A stretch of 54,142 nt of DNA from a virus (Duplodnaviria > Caudoviricetes), in the IMG/VR virus record IMGVR_UViG_3300007623_000010, positions 1-54,142 of that record; one strand, 5' to 3'. Under the pieces are notes generated by a model. That model did no database searches and was not told where the DNA came from. It saw only the letters and a list, made by a program, of their open reading frames with translations. Position 1 is the first letter of the stretch. Every line of letters begins with the position of its first letter. Below are positions 889 to 26,834 of this stretch, in pieces. The position numbers and the translations under genes were made by a program.

Positions 889-917
889 GTTTACATTAAC
901 TTCTAGTGTGATATAAT
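889..917 (+). promoter_or_regulatory. Early-type promoter for the DNA modification operon
   Basis: A-tract, GTTTAC at 889-894 and TATAAT at 912-917. Also has TTAA at 896-899, 12 nt before the -10. Confidence 0.75.
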
Positions 918-972: not shown

Positions 973-1299
973 ATGAAATACGATAAAGGTAAACCAAAAA
1001 TGCACCTTATTCCACCAGAAGCATTAGAGTCTATGGCTATAGTGCTAGGTTTTGGTGCTGAAAAATATGGTGAAAACAACTGGCGCAAAGACATAAATAA
1101 TACTAGTTTCGGTCGAACATATTCATCCTTACAGCGTCATCTTAATGCATTTTGGTCAGGTGAAGACTTTGATCCAGAGTCTGGATTACCTCATCTTGAT
1201 CACGCTTTAACACAGCTTATGATCCTAAAGATGCAAACATTAGAATGCACAAACCAAGATATGGACGACCGTTTTAAGAAGGAAGAAACAAATGATTAA
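973..1299 (+). CDS. dATP/dGTP diphosphohydrolase-like protein (DUF5664-type)
   Basis: Signature motifs KYDKGKP..LIPP, VLGFGAEKYGENNW, RHLNAFWSGEDFDPESGLPHLDHA. Confidence 0.8.
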   Translation: MKYDKGKPKMHLIPPEALESMAIVLGFGAEKYGENNWRKDINNTSFGRTYSSLQRHLNAFWSGEDFDPESGLPHLDHALTQLMILKMQTLECTNQDMDDRFKKEETND

Positions 1300-1963
1300 T
1301 GACTATCTAAAAGTAAAAGATATTCGCAAACTATTCAAGATTGCGTACGACAACGAAGAATTTACGATTGATCGCACGGGTTCTAAAACTATTGAAATCC
1401 TAGGCGCAACGTTTATTGCAGATGAAGATCACATCATTCGTACTCCAGCTTATGAATATATCGAGCGTGAACTTGACTGGTATAAGTCTATGTCGCTATA
1501 TGTAGAAGACATCCCTGGAACCACTCCAACGATTTGGAAACAGATCGCGTCAGAAGAAGGAAAGATTAATAGCAACTACGGATGGTGTATCTATTCATCC
1601 GATAATGGCCAACAGTACGATAATGTTCTAGCTGAATTGAAATCTAATCCAGATTCTCGACGTGCCACAATGATCTACAATCGTCCATCTATGCATATTG
1701 ATTTTGAAAAGAACGGAATGAATGATTTCATGTGCACATTCGCTAACTCATTCTTTATCCGCGATGGCAAACTTATATCTCATTATATTATGCGCTCAAA
1801 TGATTCAGTTTTTGGATACAACAATGATTACGCCTGGGCTCGACATGTTCAAAAGGAATTAGCTGATGATCTTGGCGTAGAAGTTGGCGATCTTATCTGG
1901 ACCGTATCTAATATCCATGTATATGAACGTCACTTTGATCAGCTTGAGGCATTAAAAGTATGA
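1292..1963 (+). CDS. 42: dCMP hydroxymethyltransferase (T4 gp42 homolog)
   Basis: Close match to T4 gp42 motifs: KTIEILGATFIAD, YIERELDWYKS, INSNYGW, DSRRATMIYNRPSM, DFMCT (catalytic Cys), MRSND..FG..NDYAW (dCMP-specific Asp), HVYERHF. Confidence 0.93.
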   Translation: MINDYLKVKDIRKLFKIAYDNEEFTIDRTGSKTIEILGATFIADEDHIIRTPAYEYIERELDWYKSMSLYVEDIPGTTPTIWKQIASEEGKINSNYGWCIYSSDNGQQYDNVLAELKSNPDSRRATMIYNRPSMHIDFEKNGMNDFMCTFANSFFIRDGKLISHYIMRSNDSVFGYNNDYAWARHVQKELADDLGVEVGDLIWTVSNIHVYERHFDQLEALKV

Positions 1964-2499
1964 TAGGCGATTTTTTTAATAATGCTAGCGAACTATTCGA
2001 AGACGAACGTGAAATTTGCTCGCCTATGTTTGGGTTATCTTTTGATAATCCAGCAGCAGCATTAAAAGATGGCAACGACTATTATAATAATATGCTTAAT
2101 GAAACAATCGTCGAACGAAATAAAATTGAGCAATATTACTATGAGCGAATTAGAAATGGGTTAATGTCTAAATTAATTGAGATTAAATCATACTCTAATG
2201 TAAGTATTTTTGACACAAGACGATGGATTACAACGAATGATGACTGCATTAGTTCTGTACAAATTCTAATCAGAGATAAAATTTTCATAAATATATTTAT
2301 GAGAAGTTCGGATTTTGATGGAGCGCTTTCGTCAGATTTGAAGTTCTTTTCATCGTTGCCAACGTGGCTCATTAATCAGCTTATTAACATGAAAGATGAT
2401 TATAGATTTAACGAGGTTACTGATGAAAGCATAAATACGTTAAATAACATGGGTGTAGATATAAACATAATGTTTGGATCATTACACCGAACAAACTAA
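1960..2499 (+). CDS. Truncated thymidylate-synthase-fold protein
   Basis: DTRRW, DDCISSVQILIRD, MRSSD..SSDL and FGSLH correspond to TS/gp42 core motifs. ATGA overlap with gp42. Confidence 0.7.
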   Translation: MIGDFFNNASELFEDEREICSPMFGLSFDNPAAALKDGNDYYNNMLNETIVERNKIEQYYYERIRNGLMSKLIEIKSYSNVSIFDTRRWITTNDDCISSVQILIRDKIFINIFMRSSDFDGALSSDLKFFSSLPTWLINQLINMKDDYRFNEVTDESINTLNNMGVDINIMFGSLHRTN

Positions 2500-2510: not shown

Positions 2511-3734
2511 ATGATTGGATTGTTCTTAGGCAAAGGCCTTGAAGGTTGCGGAGTTACAAAATACGCAATCGAAATGATGACATATCTTAAACAAAGTAAT
2601 ATAGACTATAAGTTATTCATCGCTGACGACAAAAAACATTCACGCAATAAATCACATGATTTGAGTGAATTCAACGTTGGGTTCTATCGAGCAATCCCAC
2701 CAAAACGAAAAGTCGTACCCACATTCGACGATATGATTAATGAAGCGAAAGAATGCGACACGATCGTTATTCTATCGATGCCTGTTAAAGGTTATGACGA
2801 ACAAATTTTATCTGAAACTAAGCGTTTCTTTGACTCGATTAAAGATAAAAATGTCGTTGTAACTCATCATAATCATAGTTCATTATACATGAAAAAAGAG
2901 GTGTTGCTTGATGATGTATTGGAAATCACTAACACTATCTTTACTCATAGCGCAGTAAACCCTGTAAACAAATATATTATAAACAAATATCCAAACGCGA
3001 AAATTTTTAACTTGAATCCTTCAATGTTTATTGATTCATTTAAAAAGTTTTGGAAACCCGTAAGCGAAATTGATACAAGTGTCGTTAATTGGATCGGTAG
3101 AACTACACCATGGAAAGGATACGATTTAGCTGTTAATTTTCATACAGATCATTTGAAGGGTCTAGGATTTAGCACATCAATGCATGGTATGGACCGTGGT
3201 CCAGCATTTATTGGTTTTAAAGCACTTCACGCAGGAAAATTCATACTGCAAGACAAAGAAATCCAAGATAATAAAGACAATCTTTGTGAAATCTTTGGAC
3301 CGTACGTTCAAGACAAAATGCTCGATAAAATGAGTAAATCTGGTTTTGTATTACAATTGACAAAAATTAAACCAGAAGAATTACAGCAGTCTTATTCACT
3401 TGAATTTACACATATTGAGGCTTTGTCTATTGGCTCAATTCCTGTATTTAGAACTGAACATGGTAATGCAGTAATTAGTCGTAAAGATGATCGTCCAATT
3501 ATTGAACACGATACTGGAATCCTTTGGCTGAACGAAAATAATCAAGCAGAAGTAGCTGCAAAAATGAAAGAAATCGCTAATGATCCTGCATTATTTGAAG
3601 AGCATAGAACAAAAGCGTATAATTTCGCTAAAGAACAATGCGACAGTAAAGTAGTATTCGATGAATTCTTTAGAGTAGTTAAAGAAGAAAATTCAAACTT
3701 AAACAAAGCTGATACCATAGGAGATGAATGGTAA
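2511..3734 (+). CDS. agt: DNA alpha-glucosyltransferase homolog
   Basis: GLEGCGVTK, HNHS, WIGRTTPWKG, MSKSGF, SLEFTHIE, GSIPVF and HDTGILW match T4 alpha-gt along its length. Confidence 0.9.
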   Translation: MIGLFLGKGLEGCGVTKYAIEMMTYLKQSNIDYKLFIADDKKHSRNKSHDLSEFNVGFYRAIPPKRKVVPTFDDMINEAKECDTIVILSMPVKGYDEQILSETKRFFDSIKDKNVVVTHHNHSSLYMKKEVLLDDVLEITNTIFTHSAVNPVNKYIINKYPNAKIFNLNPSMFIDSFKKFWKPVSEIDTSVVNWIGRTTPWKGYDLAVNFHTDHLKGLGFSTSMHGMDRGPAFIGFKALHAGKFILQDKEIQDNKDNLCEIFGPYVQDKMLDKMSKSGFVLQLTKIKPEELQQSYSLEFTHIEALSIGSIPVFRTEHGNAVISRKDDRPIIEHDTGILWLNENNQAEVAAKMKEIANDPALFEEHRTKAYNFAKEQCDSKVVFDEFFRVVKEENSNLNKADTIGDEW

Positions 3735-4966
3735 TGAAGTGGATTACAATTATACCATTGGCAGGTGGATATCCAGTGGGTGCTCAGAAAGATCTAGGTA
3801 CTGTTCCAGAAGCAGTTATCTCTTGGCCTGCATTTAAAGCAAACGACTCACATTATCAAAACTATTTGAGAACTGAGTATAATTATCCTGAAGAAAATTT
3901 TGTTCTTTTAGATGAAGAAAATAACGTAACACAAGGTAGTACGAATTACCTTTCAAAGGACATTGATATTGTTATTAGCACACCGCCATGTGCCGGATTG
4001 TCAATGCTAAATACTGGTAATTCTAAGGATTCAGATTCCGGACGTGGCGCATGTGCTGCACAGAATGAATGGATGAAACGAGCGTCTGAATATGCATTAG
4101 ATGTCATTAAACCGAAGGTTCTAATATTTGAGAACGCGCCAGGTCTGTACACGTCAAAAGATGGCGAAGAAGTTATGGACTATTTGAATAGTGTTGCTGA
4201 AAAATTTGGTTATAGTACGTCAGCAATCATGACTAGCACTGATCTTCATGGTATTCCACAAATTCGTAAAAGAACATTCTTTTATTTTTGGAAGTCTGAA
4301 ACTTCGCCACTAATTGAATTTAGCTCAACCGATGAAGTTGCACCTTCAATTAAAGAATATCTTTCTAAGAAACCTCCTTTTAAACAAGACAACATTTATC
4401 CAAAAGAAGGTTTACAAAACGACCCATTTTTTCAGTTTGTTAAAACGAACTATGATGACTTTAGATCTGATATGAATGAATCACGTAAACGTACAATGAC
4501 TCATCATATTATTAAAAGCGGAAAATTTGATGAATTTCATGATTACATTCTTGAGAATCACTCCGGTACTCCTGCTGCAAAATTCGTTCAGCACGCTAAG
4601 AAAAAGTTAGCAGATAATAAGAACTTCTTCGACCCTTCACCTAATTACTTCGGTGATGATAGATTGAATGGAATTGTAGGGAAAACAGTTACTCATACAG
4701 TGCATCCAATTGAAGATCGTTTCTTGTCTTATGGTGAATTGCTGTATTTTATGGGTTATCCTAACACATTTGAGTTATTAGAACCTAAGAAAAATACGAA
4801 TCATATTGCTCAGAACGTCCCAGTCACCACAGGTGCATGGTCAGTGAAACAAGCTAGATTATTCATCGAAGGAAAACTGCAAGAAACTGATAAAAAATTC
4901 GTTAAGCAGAACAACATTAAGAAAACAACTGACACTTTAGTCGCAACACAAATGGAGGAGTGGTAA
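3734..4966 (+). CDS. C5-cytosine DNA methyltransferase-fold protein with atypical motif I
   Basis: PPCAGLS (motif IV), IFENAP (VI), PQIRKRTFF (VIII), HPIEDRFLSYGE..MGYP (IX), IAQNVPV (X). Motif I reads IIPLAGG instead of F-x-G-x-G. TAATG overlap with agt. Confidence 0.8.
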   Translation: MKWITIIPLAGGYPVGAQKDLGTVPEAVISWPAFKANDSHYQNYLRTEYNYPEENFVLLDEENNVTQGSTNYLSKDIDIVISTPPCAGLSMLNTGNSKDSDSGRGACAAQNEWMKRASEYALDVIKPKVLIFENAPGLYTSKDGEEVMDYLNSVAEKFGYSTSAIMTSTDLHGIPQIRKRTFFYFWKSETSPLIEFSSTDEVAPSIKEYLSKKPPFKQDNIYPKEGLQNDPFFQFVKTNYDDFRSDMNESRKRTMTHHIIKSGKFDEFHDYILENHSGTPAAKFVQHAKKKLADNKNFFDPSPNYFGDDRLNGIVGKTVTHTVHPIEDRFLSYGELLYFMGYPNTFELLEPKKNTNHIAQNVPVTTGAWSVKQARLFIEGKLQETDKKFVKQNNIKKTTDTLVATQMEEW

Positions 4967-4983
4967 CACTCTTCCTAATTTTT
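4954..4983 (+). terminator. GNRA-loop hairpin terminator ending the modification operon
   Basis: GGAGGAGTG-GTAA-CACTCTTCC followed by TAATTTTT. Confidence 0.6.
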
Positions 4984-5032
4984 AAACAGTACTATGTTAT
5001 AATATCAATAAATTGAAAAAAGGAAAGAAAAG

Positions 5033-5461
5033 ATGATTAAAGAATTTGAAGACGTTCGTCAGTGGAAAAAAATTCGTGGTATCGGTGGAGCAGAAGACGC
5101 ACCTATGAAAGATCGACTGCAATCTCAATATCAGCGTGTTATGCAAGAATGTATTGAAATTCACGAAGCAATTGTTCTTGAAGATGATGAAGAATTTATG
5201 GACGCAATTGGCGATACGATTGTGACTCTTATTAATCTAGCTGATATCAAAGGCGTTAAAGCAGAAGATTGCTTAGCACAGGCATTTGGTGTAATTGATC
5301 TACGTAAAGGTTTGACACGTCCTACTGGTGACTTTGTCCGTTATGCTAAACTATCTTTTTCTGATCAAGAAATCTGTGATAATAAACAAGGCAATACTGC
5401 TTCAGAATATTTCCTAGAAGAAGATAAGAGCACACTTACCCCAGATTGTTTTAAGAAATAA
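5033..5461 (+). CDS. MazG-like nucleotide pyrophosphohydrolase
   Basis: QECIEIHEA..DAIGDTIVTLI..EDCLAQAFGVI..RKG, an all-alpha NTP-PPase pattern. Confidence 0.75.
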   Translation: MIKEFEDVRQWKKIRGIGGAEDAPMKDRLQSQYQRVMQECIEIHEAIVLEDDEEFMDAIGDTIVTLINLADIKGVKAEDCLAQAFGVIDLRKGLTRPTGDFVRYAKLSFSDQEICDNKQGNTASEYFLEEDKSTLTPDCFKK

Positions 5462-5472
5462 TGTAAAAAACC

Positions 5473-5502
5473 GTTTACACGCCGTTAATGTTTAGGTATA
5501 AT
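5473..5502 (+). promoter_or_regulatory. Early-type promoter
   Basis: A-tract, GTTTAC at 5473, TATAAT at 5497. Confidence 0.7.
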
Positions 5503-5530
5503 AGAGATAGCAAATAACCAAAGGAAAGAT

Positions 5531-6463
5531 ATGAAAATCATCGATAATAGCAAATCAGTTTGGTACGAAAAATATAAGCCAGCTTGCATCGAAGATCTTG
5601 TTATTCCAAACGAGATCAAAACAAAGTTAACTAGATATGTACAAACACAGGATATACCTAACATCGGCTTGTTCTCGTCTAATCCTGGGACGGGTAAATC
5701 TAGCTCAGCACATGCCATTATCAAGGAAATCGGTGGTGAAGCTCTATGGATTAACGCATCTATGGAGAAAGGTATCGATGTTCTTCGTGGCAAAGTGCAG
5801 AAATTTGCCTCGCAGTCATCATTTGATGATAACATTAAAATTGTTGTTATGGACGAGTTTGATCACTTCTCTAAAGATGGTCAAGCAGCATTCCGTGGAT
5901 TCATTGACGAATTCAGTGTAAATTGTCGTTTTATTTTTACTGGCAATTATAAAGAAAAGATTATTCAACCTTTGCTTGATCGACTAGAAGTATATGATTT
6001 CAACTCATTCAGCAAAGAGGAAATGATCAAGCCTATATTCGAAAGACTAAAATGGATTTTAGAAAACGAAAATGTACAGTACGACCCTAAATCTCTTGTG
6101 CCAGTCATTAATACGTACTATCCGCGTATTCGCTCAATGGTTGGAGCACTACAAAAGTTTAGCAAAGACGGCGTTTTTACTGTATCTGAACATGAACTTG
6201 ACGATGTCAATGTATTCGATAAAGTGATGCAACTTGTTCATATGAATACATTTACTGATATGATTACAGAGGTAAATAAACTAAACGCTCCAGATAATAT
6301 GTATACGTACCTCTATACTAATGCTGCAAAATATTTTGCACCACAGGTATACCCACAAGTCGTATTGATTATTGCAAAATACCAGCATATGTCTGATTCA
6401 GTTCGTAATAAAAACTTGAATTTGGCTGCTTGTCTCACAGAATTAATTAAGTTAAAAGGATAG
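5531..6463 (+). CDS. 44: Clamp loader large subunit (gp44)
   Basis: WYEKYKP, Walker A PGTGKS, INAS, Walker B VVMDEFD, QAAFRGFIDEFS..CRFIFTGN. Confidence 0.93.
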   Translation: MKIIDNSKSVWYEKYKPACIEDLVIPNEIKTKLTRYVQTQDIPNIGLFSSNPGTGKSSSAHAIIKEIGGEALWINASMEKGIDVLRGKVQKFASQSSFDDNIKIVVMDEFDHFSKDGQAAFRGFIDEFSVNCRFIFTGNYKEKIIQPLLDRLEVYDFNSFSKEEMIKPIFERLKWILENENVQYDPKSLVPVINTYYPRIRSMVGALQKFSKDGVFTVSEHELDDVNVFDKVMQLVHMNTFTDMITEVNKLNAPDNMYTYLYTNAAKYFAPQVYPQVVLIIAKYQHMSDSVRNKNLNLAACLTELIKLKG

Positions 6464-7941: not shown

Positions 7942-9537
7942 ATGAAGAAGTTTGAAGCAACTTGGCGCGACGGTTTTAAGTTTTACGAAAGATACTACGA
8001 TACTGATCTAAACCGTTCAATGCATCGTGTAATTAATCTCCCATACGAGTGGTACGAACCATCAAGCACCGGACTTTATTCATATATTCTTGATGACTCA
8101 ATTAAGCTTGACAAAAAGCAAGGTAATGCTAAGCAAGGCCGTGATCATTACGGTTTTCTTGATCCAATGTACCGTAACATTCGTGATAATTACTGGAACA
8201 AAGATGCTTACAATCTTAAGCCACGTGTTTGGTATCTAGATATTGAAACGCGTGTTGGTACGTGTAGCACTGGTTTTCCTGTTCCCGAGAAAGCAGCAGA
8301 ACCTATATCTTTGATCCAGATCTTTGATTCTGAAACTGACGCGGTTATTATGCTTGGCGTACGTGAATGGAAACATCAGAATTCATACGATTTTGAATAC
8401 CCAGTAAAATACATCAAATGTGATGATGAAATCCATCTAATCGAAACATACCTAAAACTATTCCAAGCAATGAACCCGTTAATCATCTACGCTTGGAACG
8501 GCTTAGGATTCGATTATCCTTACATTTACAATCGTCTCAAAAATCTTGGCATGGATACTAATAAACTTAGTAACTATGGTGGTGTATCGTATTCAGAAAG
8601 CGAATTCCAAGGCCGTCTTGAATTTAAATTTAACGCTAATGGCCACTTCTATATTGATTTGATGAATGTTTACAAAAAGTTTGTATTCAGTCCTCGTCCA
8701 TCATATTCGTTGGACTCTATTGCTGAAATTGAACTAGGTGAAAACAAAGTTGATCACTCCGAGTATTCAGGGTTTGACGACTTTTACACCGGTAAATACA
8801 ACATTCCAGAAAATCCAAACGAAAAACAGTTGAACTCAGCAATCTATAAAGAAGCGATCGCTGGCAATATAGAAGAAGTAAAAGAATTAGCACACTCTGA
8901 ATTCTGTTACTACGGCTATAAAGATCCATTGCTTATTAAAAAGATCGACGACAAACAGAACTTTACAGCTCTTATGCTTATGATTGCTGAAAAAATGGGT
9001 GTACAAATTGGTGACAGTACAGGAACGGTAAAGCCGTGGTCACAGTATATCCTTAATAAATCAATGATGAATATGCAGGTAATGCCTCCACGTACGGAAA
9101 ACGATTCACCCCACGTTGTTGGCGGTTATGTACGTGATCCGAATAAAGGTAAACACAAATGGGTAATATCTGCCGACGTTAACTCAATGTATCCTCTTCT
9201 TGGAATGGTTGGTTTCAATATGAGTCCTGAAACTTATGTTGAAAAATATAACCTTCCTCCAGAACTTAGAGATATTGTACTCGCTAAGTTTAATGACCAA
9301 GATGAAGAAAAACGATTAAATATGGATGAATCAATTTGGAATGCAACTACCGAATTGTTGAACAAACATAATCTTGCACTAGGTATCAATGGTGCGGTAT
9401 TTAAGAAAGATAAGATTGGCATGGTTCCTGAAATGGTGCAAGACATCTATGATTCAAGGAAACAAGCTAAGAAAACGATGTTCAAATATCAACAGCAAAA
9501 AATCAAAATCAATGAGTTAATTAAGGAAAAATCATGA
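7942..9537 (+). CDS. 43A: Family B DNA polymerase, N-terminal part (gp43A: exonuclease and palm motif A)
   Basis: YLDIET (ExoI), WNGLGFDYPY (ExoII), SYSLD, YGYKD (ExoIII), GGYV, DVNSMYP (motif A). Ends in the fingers helix RKQAKK. Confidence 0.93.
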   Translation: MKKFEATWRDGFKFYERYYDTDLNRSMHRVINLPYEWYEPSSTGLYSYILDDSIKLDKKQGNAKQGRDHYGFLDPMYRNIRDNYWNKDAYNLKPRVWYLDIETRVGTCSTGFPVPEKAAEPISLIQIFDSETDAVIMLGVREWKHQNSYDFEYPVKYIKCDDEIHLIETYLKLFQAMNPLIIYAWNGLGFDYPYIYNRLKNLGMDTNKLSNYGGVSYSESEFQGRLEFKFNANGHFYIDLMNVYKKFVFSPRPSYSLDSIAEIELGENKVDHSEYSGFDDFYTGKYNIPENPNEKQLNSAIYKEAIAGNIEEVKELAHSEFCYYGYKDPLLIKKIDDKQNFTALMLMIAEKMGVQIGDSTGTVKPWSQYILNKSMMNMQVMPPRTENDSPHVVGGYVRDPNKGKHKWVISADVNSMYPLLGMVGFNMSPETYVEKYNLPPELRDIVLAKFNDQDEEKRLNMDESIWNATTELLNKHNLALGINGAVFKKDKIGMVPEMVQDIYDSRKQAKKTMFKYQQQKIKINELIKEKS

Positions 9538-9824
9538 AAATTGTAGAAAATGGCAAAGTAGCAGTAGCAGTTAGTTATGGCTTTGGCGCAGGATGGAGTA
9601 CATGGAACAGCGTCTCTCCATTTGATGCGCAGTTTAATCAACTCTTTTTAGAAGGTCGTCACGAAGAAGCAGTTCTATTGGCTGATCGCCACGGGCATGT
9701 TTCTGATGGAATTTTTGATATTGAGATCGTATGGGTACCAGAAGGAACTGAATTTTTCATCCGCGAAGATGACGGTGCAGAATCAATTCACTTTAAACAG
9801 GACATCCCATGGCAAGTGGCGTAA
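9534..9824 (+). CDS. Conserved phage hypothetical protein inserted between the polymerase halves
   Basis: VAVAVSYGFGAGWSTWN motif and EDDGAESI; ATGA overlap and AAGGA RBS. Confidence 0.7.
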   Translation: MKIVENGKVAVAVSYGFGAGWSTWNSVSPFDAQFNQLFLEGRHEEAVLLADRHGHVSDGIFDIEIVWVPEGTEFFIREDDGAESIHFKQDIPWQVA

Positions 9825-10027
9825 ATGAAATAACGTCTAAGACTTGCAAAACTTGTGGTAAAACGAAAGAATTAAAAAAGTTTTATCACAAGTTCAAACA
9901 TGAAAAGTTGCAGTGTTGTGCACATTGTAAAGATTGCTGTAAAGTTTTGCGTCAGCAGAAAGAAACAAAGCAAATTAAGCAAGTACTAGGTATAATATCT
10001 AATATGAATTTAGAAGGACGACTATGA
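9809..10027 (+). CDS. Zinc-finger protein, possibly a homing endonuclease remnant
   Basis: CKTCGKTKELKKFY..CKDC resembles the N-terminal Zn module of HNH/EndoVII-type homing nucleases. No nuclease domain follows. Confidence 0.5.
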   Translation: MASGVNEITSKTCKTCGKTKELKKFYHKFKHEKLQCCAHCKDCCKVLRQQKETKQIKQVLGIISNMNLEGRL

Positions 10028-11142
10028 AAGACCCATTAGATTATACAGACGATGAACTAAACGCAATGTCAGTCGACGAACTAAAACAACTTGCACAAGA
10101 AGCAGAATACAAAGAAGGACTCTTCAATACGAGACAGCTCGTTGAAAAGGTACTTATTAACTCACTTTATGGTGCTCTTGCGAATAAGTACTTTCCACTA
10201 TTCAATGAACAAATGGCAGCTGCTATCACCGGTAATGGTAGATACTTTATTCAAAAGCTAGCTAACTACATTGAGAATACACTTCAGGGTCTTCTACCGC
10301 AGGAAAAACCGTATATTGTTTATGGCGATACTGACTCAGTTTATTATCATGTTGAACCTTTCGTAGAAAAATACATTGAAAATAACCCTGGGCAAAGCAT
10401 TGATCACTATGTTACATGGGCTGATTCATTTGAACAAAAAGTAATCCAACCCGTTATTCAGAAAACAATTGACGATTTTGCTACTGAACTAAATGCATAT
10501 AACGTAGGTGCTATCGGCGCAGAACGTGAAATCATTGCTGATGCAGCAGTCTTTACAGCTAAGAAAAAGTACTATGCACGTGTTAGAGATTCAGAAGGTA
10601 CACGTTTCCCCGAGTCAGACCCTTACATTAAAGTTATGGGCCTTGAAATCGCTAAATCAAGTACTCCTACATGGGCTAAGAAAAAGCTTAAAGAAGCTAT
10701 TCCTCATATTCTTGATAAAGATGAAAATGATTTACGCGACTGGGTTAACGAAATTAAGCAAGAATTCATTACTACCAATCCAAACAATATCGCATTGATC
10801 GGTGGTGTATCCAATCTTAACTATGATCTTCAAAAAGATAAAGGTGTGCCAATTGGTTCTCGTGCTGCTTTAGTACATAATGATTATGTTCAAACTCATG
10901 GACTAGCAGAAAAGTATTCACCTATTCAAGCTGGCGATAAGTGTAAGCGTCTATTTTTACAACAACCCAATGTATTTAATAGCAACATTATTGCTTATAC
11001 AAATGATGCTTTCGTTAACGAAATTGATTGTATTGATTTTGATACAAACTTTGAAAAAGGTTTCTTATCGGCGTTGAAATTAATGGTTGAACCTTTGAAC
11101 TACGATCTTGAAAAAGAAACAGCGAATTTAGATGATTGGTAA
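10024..11142 (+). CDS. 43B: Family B DNA polymerase, C-terminal part (gp43B)
   Basis: KVLINSLYG (motif B), YGDTDS (motif C), KKKY, IKVMGLEIAKSSTP; C-terminus NLDDW. Confidence 0.93.
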   Translation: MKDPLDYTDDELNAMSVDELKQLAQEAEYKEGLFNTRQLVEKVLINSLYGALANKYFPLFNEQMAAAITGNGRYFIQKLANYIENTLQGLLPQEKPYIVYGDTDSVYYHVEPFVEKYIENNPGQSIDHYVTWADSFEQKVIQPVIQKTIDDFATELNAYNVGAIGAEREIIADAAVFTAKKKYYARVRDSEGTRFPESDPYIKVMGLEIAKSSTPTWAKKKLKEAIPHILDKDENDLRDWVNEIKQEFITTNPNNIALIGGVSNLNYDLQKDKGVPIGSRAALVHNDYVQTHGLAEKYSPIQAGDKCKRLFLQQPNVFNSNIIAYTNDAFVNEIDCIDFDTNFEKGFLSALKLMVEPLNYDLEKETANLDDW

Positions 11143-21686: not shown

Positions 21687-23198
21687 ATGAACTTTGTCCA
21701 ATACATAAATGAGGGAAAAGAGCAGCTGGATATTAGTATCCTAGCTGCTGGTAAATACCTTACGAATCAAAAACGAATTGAAGAATTTCTTTCGTCTAAC
21801 GTCACAATTGAACATAAAACTGATGGTATTAAGCTAACTGTCATTAAGAAAGATAACAATGGTACACTAGACGATTACGTTTTTGCTTATAAAGGTCAGG
21901 TTCTTTATAGCGCAGAGTATGCTTACAATTCTAAAACTAAAGTTAAGAAAGAATCTATTGGTCCTTCACAGTTTGGATTAGTGTTTGATCATTTTAAAAA
22001 ACTTGGTAAGAATAGTATTCCAGTTGATACAGAATTATTCATTGAATTCTTAATGTCAAAACCGACACTATCATCTAACTATAACACTAAACATAAGATG
22101 GTTCTCATTGGTTACGCTAAAACCAAATGGCAAGAAAAGTTCGGTAGACTAATAAGTAATCCAGCGCCTATGCAAGAAGCTAAGAGAAACGATTACGCTA
22201 AACAAATTAAAATTGACATCCCTCAATTATTGTTTGTAGGCTCTATGGGTTCTCAAATAAGTTTTAGTGCAGGTATTAAAAACAATGCGCTGAAAGCAGA
22301 ATTTGAATCTAGCAAATTGTCAATGAACTGGGATAATGCTGAATTGTTATTGGATGACATTCGTCAATTATTCTTAAATGTTGAGTCTAAATATGGCGGC
22401 AAAGAAGAAGGTGTTGTAATTAAATACAACAACATGATTCTAAAATGGCAGCAAGAATATCAATTAGACCAAACTGCCAGAGCGGCTATTAAAGCTAAAT
22501 ATAGAGAAGACGACATTTTAGCAGAAAATCGTTATTGGGAGTACGTTAATAATCAAGCTTATCGTTTATCAAATTCTATTGTTGTTAAATCTAGAAAATT
22601 GAATGACGTTCTTGAAGAATTAGCTTTAGAACTTAAAAAACTAAAAATAGAAATTACTCATAGCAAAAAGACTGATGTCATGATTAAAGACGACATTCAG
22701 CTAAATACTAAAACCTTGCTTGTCAAGAAAATGCGTGGAAATAATAACGCATTGATTTTGGGCAAATTCAGAGTATTGACCAAAGAAGGTCATTATAAAT
22801 TGATTAAGCGTGCAGCGACATTATATGATAATGTTGTGGTTTGTATTGTTACTTCGAAAGATACTAAAGATACTAAAGATCTACGCGAAGAAATGATGAG
22901 AAAGGCATTCCCGAATGTTGAAATAATTCATCATAATTCTGGAAACATTAGCGGTATTTTGAATAAATCGCCAATAAATATTAATGCGGTTTATGCTGGC
23001 ACAGACAGGGTTGCTGCTTACAAAGAACAACTTAAGTATCGTCTTGGCGTTGAAGTTAGAGAGATGCCTCGTACTGATTCAGATATTAGCGCGAGTAAAG
23101 TCATCGATAATATTGCGAATCAAGAATTCTTTGAGAAAAATACTCCGAAAGAACTCCACTCAATGTATAATAAGATTAAAAAGGTATATGAAAAATGA
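21687..23198 (+). CDS. Fusion of an ATP-dependent (RNA) ligase-like domain and a HIGH-type nucleotidyltransferase domain
   Basis: N-terminal EHKTDG (motif I), FIEFL (III), EEGVVIK (IV), ILKW (V). C-terminal LGKFRVLTKEGH, YAGTDR, ISASKV. Confidence 0.7.
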   Translation: MNFVQYINEGKEQLDISILAAGKYLTNQKRIEEFLSSNVTIEHKTDGIKLTVIKKDNNGTLDDYVFAYKGQVLYSAEYAYNSKTKVKKESIGPSQFGLVFDHFKKLGKNSIPVDTELFIEFLMSKPTLSSNYNTKHKMVLIGYAKTKWQEKFGRLISNPAPMQEAKRNDYAKQIKIDIPQLLFVGSMGSQISFSAGIKNNALKAEFESSKLSMNWDNAELLLDDIRQLFLNVESKYGGKEEGVVIKYNNMILKWQQEYQLDQTARAAIKAKYREDDILAENRYWEYVNNQAYRLSNSIVVKSRKLNDVLEELALELKKLKIEITHSKKTDVMIKDDIQLNTKTLLVKKMRGNNNALILGKFRVLTKEGHYKLIKRAATLYDNVVVCIVTSKDTKDTKDLREEMMRKAFPNVEIIHHNSGNISGILNKSPININAVYAGTDRVAAYKEQLKYRLGVEVREMPRTDSDISASKVIDNIANQEFFEKNTPKELHSMYNKIKKVYEK

Positions 23199-24357: not shown

Positions 24358-24780
24358 ATGAGAGTAGGATTCACGGCCAGTTCGTTCGACCTTCTTCATG
24401 CAGGACATGTGGCAATGCTAGAAGAAAGTCGAAAGAATTGTGATTATTTAATTGTTGGTTTAAATGTCAATCCATTTAAAAACGGACGTTATCCTGTACA
24501 AGGTTTGTTTGAAAGGTTTAAACAACTCCAAGCAGTTAAATGGGTTGACGAAATCATTCCTTACAATGGTGAAAATGAGCTGATTGAAATTTTTAATACG
24601 ATACACATTGACGTTCGATTTATTGGATCAGACTACAAAAATTCACCATTCACCGGGCAAGAAATAAACGAAAGGAACCATACTGAGATCTTCTTTAATC
24701 GAAGAGATCATAATTTTAGTTCGAGTCGCTTAAAGAAACAAGTCGTCGACAATCAATTAGAAGTAAAGGAAGAAGGATAA
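24358..24780 (+). CDS. Cytidylyltransferase (TagD/glycerol-3-phosphate CT-like)
   Basis: FDLLHAGH, LIVGL, ER..L..VDEIIPY, IGSDY, RDHNFSSS. Confidence 0.88.
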   Translation: MRVGFTASSFDLLHAGHVAMLEESRKNCDYLIVGLNVNPFKNGRYPVQGLFERFKQLQAVKWVDEIIPYNGENELIEIFNTIHIDVRFIGSDYKNSPFTGQEINERNHTEIFFNRRDHNFSSSRLKKQVVDNQLEVKEEG

Positions 24781-26107: not shown

Positions 26108-26135
26108 TTAAGCTAAAAGGTTGTATAATATTACC

Positions 26136-26834
26136 ATGAAAACATACATCATTTATTTAAAAGACAACGATTTATCAATCAAGTTAGCGAAGGATGCGCA
26201 AAAATCCTGCGAACGTTTTGGTTTAGAGTACGAAATGTTTGACGGAGTGCCAGCTGATAAAGCAATTGACGTTATGAAACTACATGATCTTAAGCCTTCA
26301 AACAGCGTTAAGAAGGAAGTATGGACTAAAGGAACAATTGGCTGTGTTGCTAGTCATTTCTTACTTTGGAAGAAATGTTCTGAGCAAGACGAAAATTTCG
26401 TCATAATGGAACATGATGGTCTTATTATTCGAGATCCACGATTAATAGAAAATGATGTTGTGCATGCTTGCCATCTTGATGCATCAGTCGCTTTCAATTC
26501 GAATTACGATGCTGATAGCGAAGAATGGTTTTACCACTATGAAAAATCATTTATTGATAATAACAAACCGGGTGTTCGTGATCATCCTTCAGTCAAATTT
26601 TATGGCAACCAAGATATAATAGGTGGTACATTTAGAGGTGCATACGGATATATGATTACACCAGCAGGTGCGAAACGTTTGGTAAATTTCGTTAGAAAAT
26701 ACGGCGTGTATCCAGCAGATCAGTGCCTATGCGAAACTGCGGTTAAGCTTCAAAGAGCTAAATCTACGTATGTACGACTGCATCCGTTCTTTAAGACGTT
26801 GAACAAGCAACGAGAAAATACGACTCGTCTATAA
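26136..26834 (+). CDS. Glycosyltransferase family 25-like protein
   Basis: TYIIYL, FDGV, GCVASHFLLW, IMEHD, GAYGYMITPAGA..PAD. ATG is 7 nt after TATAAT (26124-26129). Confidence 0.82.
   Translation: MKTYIIYLKDNDLSIKLAKDAQKSCERFGLEYEMFDGVPADKAIDVMKLHDLKPSNSVKKEVWTKGTIGCVASHFLLWKKCSEQDENFVIMEHDGLIIRDPRLIENDVVHACHLDASVAFNSNYDADSEEWFYHYEKSFIDNNKPGVRDHPSVKFYGNQDIIGGTFRGAYGYMITPAGAKRLVNFVRKYGVYPADQCLCETAVKLQRAKSTYVRLHPFFKTLNKQRENTTRL

Follow-up and report, generated by a model that had tools for sequence, protein, structure and literature searches.

Cytosine C5-methyltransferases (C5-MTases) such as M.HhaI and M.HaeIII (PF00145, TIGR00675) have in common a fold, a catalytic Cys/Glu/Arg-x-Arg set and a framework formed by motifs IX and X. 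All of these are also found in the protein considered here, the product of the last gene (3734..4966, plus strand) of a compact array in a 54,142-nucleotide Caudoviricetes record of IMG/VR (IMGVR_UViG_3300007623_000010; this whole 54-kb stretch is referred to as the window), and in a set of relatives that we call the PLxGG family. However, compared with canonical C5-MTases, members of this family have [IVQ]-P-L-x-G-G in motif I in place of FxGxGG, no acid at the end of strand 2, PCA in motif IV, ENA-P in motif VI and x-Q-N for G-N in motif X; moreover, their target-recognition region is conserved, whereas that of canonical enzymes is variable.

A phage enzyme of the same fold that makes a product other than 5-methylcytosine (5mC) has been described: CmoX, a DNA cytosine C5-carboxymethyltransferase (Protein Data Bank (PDB) entry 8YF3; PMC12783734), which matches the model of the window protein with a Z score of 24.4 and in which the motif X site next to the transferable group is likewise altered. 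In the accessible part of its description, Phe25, Glu47, Phe48 and Asp69 make the contacts with the adenosine of carboxy-S-adenosylmethionine (Cx-SAM), and Arg350, at the site of HhaI Asn304, binds the carboxymethyl group (PMC12783734). CmoX keeps its adenosine contacts and has both Arg350 and a partner protein, CmoA, whereas in the PLxGG family the equivalents of the Phe and Glu are lost and a Gln stands at the Arg site. CmoX-like carboxymethylation was rejected for the window protein on account of Gln360 at the Arg site and of TPPC where CmoX has SPPC; no second open reading frame (ORF) of a methyltransferase family, as a CmoA-like partner would be, turned up in PHROG scans of the window.

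The two pocket positions next to the transferred group have also been altered in the laboratory. In M.HhaI, according to the text available to us, Gln82 and Asn304 were modelled beside the transferable group, Q82A lowered methylation by about 16-fold, and the engineered variant Q82A/N304A changes the same two positions as the PLxGG family (PMC3526304). Enzymes of this fold further display side reactions independent of S-adenosylmethionine (AdoMet), in which the same Cys–C6 chemistry acts on 5-substituted cytosines; methyl transfer to DNA containing 5-hydroxymethylcytosine (5hmC) was explained by a loss of the hydroxymethyl group that the enzyme itself drives, and thiol-dependent reactions are part of the same literature (PMC11347137, as far as its accessible text extends). 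The in vitro chemistry on which the earlier, sequence-only reading of this DNA had drawn is therefore a published one. By contrast with the M.HhaI variants, which are laboratory-made, and with these side reactions, which are slow, the PLxGG family is natural and conserved, and its Asn is replaced by a longer Gln, not by a shorter Ala.

Genes for MTase-fold proteins also stand beside DNA glycosyltransferases in phage clusters that combine a C5-MTase, a TET (5mYOX) enzyme and glycosyltransferases (PMC8256090; Pyle 2023 preprint; both in part). There, 5mC is made and is then oxidized by TET, whereas in the window the hydroxymethyl group arrives before replication, via an orthologue of T4 gp42. 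A Tet_JBP domain (PF12851) was not matched in the window (~28% of the genome) or in five related records, the search of the latter having also missed all of its control genomes. Some of the inactive clade III–VI enzymes in the papers on these clusters may belong to the PLxGG family. In the searchable literature we found no description of the PLxGG subfamily, although an earlier mention cannot be excluded, key sequence supplements being unread: the available part of the TIM5 paper names the S-TIM5 gene merely ‘DNA meth’ in a figure legend, and that of the Pyle 2023 preprint lists methyltransferases among glycosyltransferase neighbours, without discussing them in ThyS contexts.

Fold and cofactor site

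The position and frame given for the gene by the sequence-only reading are correct: the public gene call (P0003, 410 residues) begins at the same ATG, at 3734, which is preceded by GGAG 10 nt 5′, and an alternative in-frame ATG at 3728 is the less probable start codon. An AlphaFold2 model built from 118 homologues has a predicted local distance difference test score of 95 and a predicted template modelling score of 0.92. It can be superimposed by VIA on M.HaeIII, M.HhaI, DNMT1, MET1, DIM2 and CmoX with Z scores of 24–25 and root mean squared deviations (r.m.s.d.) of 3.0–3.6 Å over 280–330 residues (Z 25.3, r.m.s.d. 3.1 Å and 280 residues for 1dct_A; Z 24.4, r.m.s.d. 3.1 Å and 289 residues for HhaI, 2i9k_A), and Foldseek E values reach down to 7e-13. 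As judged from this model, the window protein has, without doubt, the two-domain C5-methyltransferase fold with a Rossmann-like catalytic domain. The profile scores point to where it departs from its relatives. It reaches 71.9 bits on PF00145 (cut-off 22), with the profile aligned from position 45 onward only, so that motifs I–III are unaligned; on NCBIfam TIGR00675 (dcm) it stays below the cut-off (49.9 versus 100.65 bits) and covers profile positions 57–312 only. A canonical haloarchaeal-virus enzyme taken as control (P0267) scores 206 bits on TIGR00675 over positions 1–328.

Conservation was counted in an alignment of 118 family representatives, with residues numbered as in P0003. The catalytic residues Cys86 (motif IV), Glu133 (motif VI), and Arg178 and Arg180 (motif VIII) are each present in 118/118 sequences, and hardly any variation is seen in the Arg/Glu of motif IX or the V-P of motif X. 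The proposal that this is a C5-MTase fold with its PC, EN and QxRxR motifs intact is accordingly borne out by both the model and the alignment. The altered motif I (IIPLAGG) that had been pointed out is equally real: the family columns read [IVQ], Pro8 (110/118), Leu9 (117/118), x, Gly11 (118/118) and Gly12 (118/118). Its register is agreed on by hhalign against a canonical enzyme, by the secondary structure of the model (strand at residues 3–6, loop at 7–11, helix from residue 12) and by structural superposition, in which model residue 1 corresponds to HhaI residue 12 and CmoX residue 19, with Ile7 occupying the site of the motif I Phe (HhaI F18, CmoX F25).

Where the sequence-only reading fell short was in confining the alteration to motif I, since motifs IV, VI and X are changed as well, and so is the site of the strand-2 acid. 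At the end of strand 2, residues 29–32 of the window protein are I-S-W-P, with no acid in any candidate register (the register is uncertain by at most two residues), and across the family the candidate columns hold an acid in at most 31/118 sequences. The residue following the catalytic Cys is Ala in 81, Ser in 30 and Gly in 6 of the 118; in motif VI, the invariant Glu is followed by Asn (116/118), Ala (117/118) and Pro (115/118); and in motif X, Gln360 and Asn361 are found in 116/118 and 112/118, respectively. The cofactor side is far from featureless: a family-specific Asn37-Asp38 pair after strand 2 is conserved, as are an aromatic residue that follows strand 2 and, in 102/118 sequences, an Asp, Asn or Glu that follows strand 3. 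Being near-invariant across the family, the altered positions are not a product of decay, nor is motif I a chance lesion.

In class I methyltransferases, no AdoMet determinants are better conserved than the first Gly of the glycine loop and the acid of strand 2. At both of these (FxGxG and the strand-2 acid) the AdoMet site of the PLxGG family is non-canonical, and the positions concerned suggest that AdoMet binding may have been lost. The data on CmoX and M.HhaI described above place the departures from canonical enzymes at contacts to the adenosine and the methionine as well as at both residues flanking the transferred group. Overall, the data show a family with the appearance of a catalytically competent enzyme that uses a nucleophile on cytosine C6, but with a non-canonical and strongly constrained putative cofactor site.

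Distribution and linkage to thymidylate synthase homologues

A phmmer search of 1.84 billion cluster representatives (50% identity) recovered 265 family proteins at E ≤ 1e-30, and a word-indexed search 210 at E ≤ 1e-5; in IMG/VR, at least 590 stretches encode family members, and a search of the ESM Atlas yielded same-family viral clusters only. Among 50,697 phage records, full-length homologues are found in six, namely Pseudoalteromonas phage vB_Psh_XG4 (XG4) and five TIM5-like cyanophage records (34–35% identity), the remaining 11 matches being canonical methylases. One genome from each of 185,579 prokaryotic species gave 17 family loci, all on contigs of metagenome-assembled genomes, and 10 of these carry the same phage module. 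The family is phage-restricted and is not seen in restriction–modification settings in these species genomes. In source databases its members bear the automatic name ‘site-specific DNA-cytosine methylase’. Four long homologues, P0128 (768 residues), P0152 (1462), P0159 (598) and P0172 (653), have the same PLIGG-type motif I together with low-complexity Arg/Gly- or Lys/Glu-rich tails and C2H2-like zinc fingers, to which P0159 adds a CXXC domain (PF02008, E 6.6e-7). All four lie on short single-gene metagenome contigs and are eukaryotic in appearance.

The genomic context of the family was studied in the best 80 viral loci among the at least 590, with S-TIM5 added (81 loci). A thymidylate synthase (TS) homologue lies within 6 kb in 50/81, and in 40/54 of the loci with at least 5 kb of upstream sequence. 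All of the neighbouring TS homologues examined except one (L028, Asn) have Asp at the position of ThyA-N177 and keep ThyA-D169. These are the positions by which hydroxymethylase-type enzymes and 5-hydroxy-dCMP synthases are told apart (dCMP, deoxycytidine monophosphate; PMC13326640, accessible part), and their state assigns the neighbours to the cytosine hydroxymethylase type. An arabinosyl-type pathway via 5-hydroxycytosine was ruled out on the same basis, since RSND or RSCD is present and the D169N signature is not. In the window itself, the gp42 orthologue (NDYAW, RSND) and the alpha-glucosyltransferase (AGT) fit what is expected of a T4-type hydroxymethylcytosine (hmC) pathway; the specificity Asp in NDYAW (T4 D179) is retained. 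The inferred hmC-making operon holds up: the gp42 orthologue is two genes upstream of the C5-MTase-fold gene, and the alpha-glucosyltransferase directly upstream.

Whole-record searches with PF00303 found a TS homologue in 4/4, 5/5 and 32/47 family records, where the last sample comprises the 47 records searched out of 50 loci submitted from the 80, most of them small fragments and without de-replication. As a control, 50 viral records with the canonical methylase motif GPPCQGFS gave two positives, both with ThyA-like scores. The difference between 32/47 and 2/50 is pronounced (Fisher p = 8.6e-12), although the control phages are of other types, many of them proviruses, and shared T4-like ancestry may inflate the contrast. 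The neighbourhood on contigs of metagenome-assembled genomes is similar, with a TS homologue of the Asp type (TS(Asp)) next to the gene in 10/17 loci, and a gene of the dCMP hydroxymethylase type is present in all high-completeness genomes examined: S-TIM5, XG4, G002 (100%), G004 (91%) and G001 (84%). A tie of the family as a whole to hmC-type pathways is supported by these observations. A published comparison agrees with this: in MetaGPA, as far as the available part of that study goes, Thymidylat_synt heads the list for cytosine-modified viral contigs, whereas PF00145 as a whole shows no enrichment there (6 selected versus 846 unselected contigs, p = 0.40; PMC8670742).

S-TIM5 has a single TS homologue, and since this carries the specificity Asp, a pre-replicative route to 5hmC is indicated there too; the C5-MTase-like enzyme was for the same reason rejected as the source of 5hmC in this phage.

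Possible activities of the PLxGG family

The interpretation that we rank first, with a confidence that stays clearly below even, is that the protein would be a post-replicative enzyme using Cys–C6 chemistry on the 5hmC-containing DNA of the phage, without canonically bound AdoMet. What places it first is that an ordinary cytosine methylase would be deprived of its substrate in phages of this kind, together with the lack of a TS tie in canonical methylases. In this scheme, a phage-specific branch of the C5-MTase fold would be a fixed part of cytosine hypermodification modules, next to dCMP hydroxymethylase and glycosyltransferases. The enzyme would bind DNA and flip out a cytosine-type base, as its fold, its conserved motifs VIII and IX and its target-recognition region suggest; Cys86 would then attack C6 with the assistance of Glu133 and Arg178/Arg180, all conserved residues whose chemistry we take from the canonical enzymes. 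We propose 5hmC in phage DNA as the substrate because cytosine is replaced by 5hmC, the pocket around C5 is rebuilt and the canonical AdoMet determinants are gone. The C6 adduct would allow the 5-CH2-OH group to leave, or to be exchanged, via an exocyclic-methylene intermediate, for another group supplied by a putative cosubstrate, in parallel to glycosylation. That the aquatic-phage family is an AdoMet-independent 5hmC editor, which by way of the Cys–C6 adduct and the exocyclic methylene makes an undescribed 5-CH2-X base from part of the virion 5hmC, is a more specific and doubtful proposal, and a new enzymatic function for the family is, similarly, no better than a tentative idea.

Several observations weigh against 5hmC editing. 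An adenosine-type cofactor could be bound in a shifted manner, given Gly11-Gly12, the strand-3 Asp/Asn/Glu, the strand-2 aromatic residue and Asn37-Asp38. Cultured hmC phages of the T-even type are without the gene, and the finding of a full-length homologue in just 6/50,697 phage records means that neither hmC nor glucosyl-hmC in itself requires it. In S-TIM5, no glycosyltransferase gene is adjacent to the family member. The linkage to TS has its own weak points beyond the composition of the control: two of the 32 positive records (G014 and G026) have a high-scoring TS only (E ~1e-91 to 1e-95), the G026 copy (L028) being the one with Asn, and a TS homologue was not found in a subclade of seven fragments (L014–L019 and L021; 19–69 kb, 6–25% complete), in which the gene is located in large sugar clusters with GT2, HAD, FkbM, nucleotidyltransferase, epimerase, DegT aminotransferase and GT1 genes. 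The CXXC domain of the long eukaryote-like homologues hints at action on unmodified CpG DNA. Finally, the AdoMet-independent reactions of methyltransferases have so far been slow side reactions.

Nearly as likely as 5hmC editing, and like it possible without being probable, is that the family consists of divergent AdoMet-dependent C5-methyltransferases that form 5mC where cytosine has escaped replacement by 5hmC (residual cytosine, repair patches or early-replicated DNA) or at specific sites, and in this way add to the protection of the DNA. The sequence-only reading had offered both possibilities, derivatization of hmC and methylation of residual cytosine. A divergent methylase would account for the score above the PF00145 cut-off, for the retention of all catalytic motifs and for the conserved GG of motif I, strand-3 Asp/Asn/Glu and strand-2 aromatic residue, with Asn37-Asp38 perhaps taking over ribose binding from the lost acid; the fusion of the eukaryote-like homologues to CXXC and zinc-finger domains, as in DNMT1-type proteins, and the database names, which are automatic only, are in line with it. 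It is harder to reconcile with Leu at the first Gly of the loop in 117/118 sequences, with the absence of the strand-2 acid, and with the subthreshold TIGR00675 score and its unaligned motifs I–III. The Gln of PCQ is gone too, and methylation by M.HhaI falls without Gln82 (PMC3526304, accessible text). The context is a further obstacle: a strict link to pathways that remove the enzyme’s own substrate would be odd, the more so as only 2/50 canonical-methylase records share it, and candidate deoxynucleoside triphosphate (dNTP) pyrophosphatases flank the array, which, if they are dCTPases, would leave little cytosine. Were the protein an ordinary methylase after all, this would show that AdoMet binding can do without both of the best-conserved class I determinants, and that hmC phages protect their cytosines at a second, post-replicative level.

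Other activities of the same fold appear less plausible. A cytosine 5-hydroxymethylase acting at the DNA level, which would draw on a one-carbon donor distinct from AdoMet (a formaldehyde equivalent or folate) to turn leftover cytosine into 5hmC, so that all cytosines become sugar acceptors, is unlikely. It would fit the linkage to hmC and glycosylation modules, the pocket rebuilt at positions beside the transferable group and the L014–L021 subclade, where sugar clusters without a TS seen in the fragments are what a stand-alone maker of the glycosylation handle would leave; C5-methyltransferases reportedly add formaldehyde to cytosine in vitro, a finding ascribed to Liutkeviciute et al. in 2009. 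Yet every high-completeness genome examined already holds a gene of the dCMP hydroxymethylase type, there is no sign of a folate site, and to our knowledge no such DNA-level enzyme has been described. Quite unlikely is an enzyme directed at host DNA, which would attack unmodified host cytosine by C-to-U deamination or covalent adducts and aid host shut-off or breakdown, the cytosines of the phage being masked as glycosyl-5hmC. The strict co-occurrence with cytosine replacement suits such self/non-self logic, as does a catalytic Cys kept while AdoMet determinants are lost, and methyltransferases are said, in work attributed to Shen et al. in 1992, to deaminate cytosine without AdoMet. However, the gene regularly comes right behind one for a glycosyltransferase or another sugar-related protein, in many cases with its start codon overlapping the preceding stop codon, and this points to the modification pathway and not to host takeover; the conserved GG, Gln360-Asn361 and Asn37-Asp38 on the cofactor side suggest a bound ligand; and the array is without a nuclease or glycosylase partner. 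We regard as very improbable a non-catalytic accessory that binds DNA and flips bases for the glycosyltransferases. Loss of cofactor motifs is typical of pseudo-methyltransferases, and the stop/start overlap with the alpha-glucosyltransferase gene is consistent with translational coupling, but the invariance of Cys86, Glu133, Arg178 and Arg180 (118/118) argues for catalysis, and the partner glycosyltransferase families vary by locus, which argues against one specific complex.

If the family does more than form 5mC, it would provide the first case in nature of an enzyme that puts the side chemistry of C5-methyltransferases to use. Editing of 5hmC would, if true, mean that T4-like phages abundant in the sea and in fresh water possess a new DNA base, and would be for cytosine what the kinase/pyrophosphorylase route is for 5-hydroxymethyluracil. 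The answer bears on the escape of phages from restriction, CRISPR and glycosylase defences, on ‘methylase’ annotations in viromes and on enzymatic tools for 5hmC mapping. Because cultured carriers exist in Pseudoalteromonas phage vB_Psh_XG4 and cyanophage S-TIM5, the question is directly testable.

Gene array of the window and neighbours in related loci

The window record has an estimated completeness of 28% and a GC content of ~35%, and its genes are a T4-like myovirus set (clamp loader, split family-B polymerase, helicases, topoisomerase II, terminase, and tail and head genes). Five close-set plus-strand genes lie between a promoter-like site and a terminator-like hairpin, both of them consensus matches only (Table 1): a pyrophosphatase-like gene, the gp42 orthologue, orf179, the alpha-glucosyltransferase gene and, last, the C5-MTase-fold gene. 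Promoter-like sites show no excess in the region (25 versus a mean of 30.4 in shuffled sequences), and terminator-like sites number 6 versus 2.9; the hairpin is likely to be the end of the transcription unit. The start codon of the C5-MTase-fold gene overlaps the stop codon of the alpha-glucosyltransferase gene (TAATG), and this agrees with the translational coupling that had been proposed for the pair. The product of the first gene is a candidate dNTP pyrophosphatase of the pathway, and that of the MazG-like gene just 3′ of the array another candidate, possibly a dCTPase. For orf179, no match was found in Pfam, PHROG or NCBIfam and no homologue among the 81 related loci; comparison with the PDB gave insignificant matches only, the sole similarity being with the endonuclease region of influenza PA (E 0.06). 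A role for orf179 as a hydroxymethyl-dCMP kinase, which was considered, is unsupported by any of these family or PDB matches.

Table 1. Positions of the array genes, putative signals and motifs of the C5-MTase-fold protein in the window
Feature	Position	Strand	Basis or remark
Sigma-70-like promoter match upstream of array	890..917	+	TTTACA-16-TATAAT with TG; consensus match only
DUF550 / dATP-dGTP diphosphohydrolase N-domain-like protein	973..1299	+	PF18909, E 7.6e-31; phrog_801; 8-nt overlap with gp42 start
dCMP hydroxymethylase, T4 gp42 orthologue	1292..1963	+	PDB 1b49/1b5e, E 2.9e-75, residues 1–216; RSND kept
orf179, no family	1960..2499	+	Between gp42 orthologue and alpha-glucosyltransferase gene
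DNA alpha-glucosyltransferase	2511..3734	+	PF11440, E 1.6e-56; phrog_2888, E 1.5e-82
C5-MTase-fold protein, PLxGG family	3734..4966	+	PF00145, 71.9 bits; AlphaFold2 model; VIA superpositions
Altered motif I, IIPLAGG	3749..3769	+	Ile7 at Phe, Leu9 at first Gly of FxGxGG
Strand 2 end / helix B start, AVISWPAF..ND	3812..3847	+	No acid at motif II Glu/Asp site
Motif IV, PPCAGLS	3983..4003	+	Catalytic Cys86 kept; Ala for Gln of PCQ
Motif VI, FENAPGL	4127..4147	+	Glu133 kept; Ala-Pro at/after Val of ENV
Motif VIII, HGIPQIRKRTF	4247..4279	+	QxRxR kept; Gln176 115/118
Motif X, NHIAQNVPV	4799..4831	+	Canonical I-G-N-A-V-P replaced by I-A-Q-N-V-P (hhalign)
Terminator-like hairpin and T-run across stop codon	4954..4975	+	9-pair stem, 5 GC pairs
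MazG-like pyrophosphatase just 3′ of array	5033..5461	+	phrog_715, E 4.1e-13; Pfam MazG below cut-off

An abutting upstream ORF on the same strand, whose end falls between −30 and +200 nt relative to the first codon of the C5-MTase-fold gene, is present in 71/81 loci, and in most cases it is a gene for a DNA glycosyltransferase or one concerned with sugar nucleotides. These ORFs form 19 clusters, and the assignments rest on a Pfam scan of 17 cluster representatives, L009 and L063 being left out: AGT (22 loci), NAD-dependent epimerase/dehydratase (8), UDP-galactopyranose mutase (8), GT1/GT4-like below the cut-off (6), Glyco_trans_1_2 (5), cytidylyltransferase-like (4), 5-hydroxymethyldeoxyuridine (5-hmdU) DNA kinase-like (3), GT25 (2), and, in one locus each, TAGT (TET-associated glycosyltransferase), a weakly GT47-like protein and a second copy of the PLxGG family (L013). 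In the cultured phage XG4, the order is TS(Asp), a small ORF, a nucleotidyltransferase/kinase, two successive glycosyltransferases and the C5-MTase-fold gene, whereas S-TIM5 has it as a solitary gene on the other strand, at a distance of 2 kb from TS(Asp), with an AGT-like gene elsewhere.

Individual loci display further arrangements. Tandem paralogues, both with PLIGG, are found in L007 (5968–7182 and 7184–8401) and L013 (4781–5998 and 6001–7197), and the TS(Asp) homologues of these two loci belong to a divergent clade with YDAPFF in place of NDYAW. The 5-hmdU DNA kinase-like ORF is upstream in L026, L027 and L029 (in L026, at 4547–5989, 481 residues, PF18723, E 3.4e-7), a lineage that includes a 293-kb phage with terminal repeats; this neighbour hints at a phosphorylated hydroxymethyl-pyrimidine intermediate in the L026-type lineage. 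In L010, a SET-domain protein (4424–4837; PF00856, E 4.1e-8) is encoded directly upstream of the C5-MTase-fold gene.

Outside the array, the window holds three sugar-related genes, at 21687–23198, 24358–24780 and 26121–26834, which between them encode a cytidylyltransferase-like protein (PF01467, E 9e-14), a 503-residue protein weakly matching the same family and a GT25 glycosyltransferase (PF01755, E 3.6e-18); they may serve a second sugar or a more complex DNA glycan, or an unrelated glycosylation. The family-B DNA polymerase of the window is split into an exonuclease/N-terminal gene (7942–9537) and a C-terminal polymerase gene (10024–11142), separated by two small ORFs (9534–9824 and 9809–10027), and in the related locus L019 the polymerase pieces contain intein-splicing domains.

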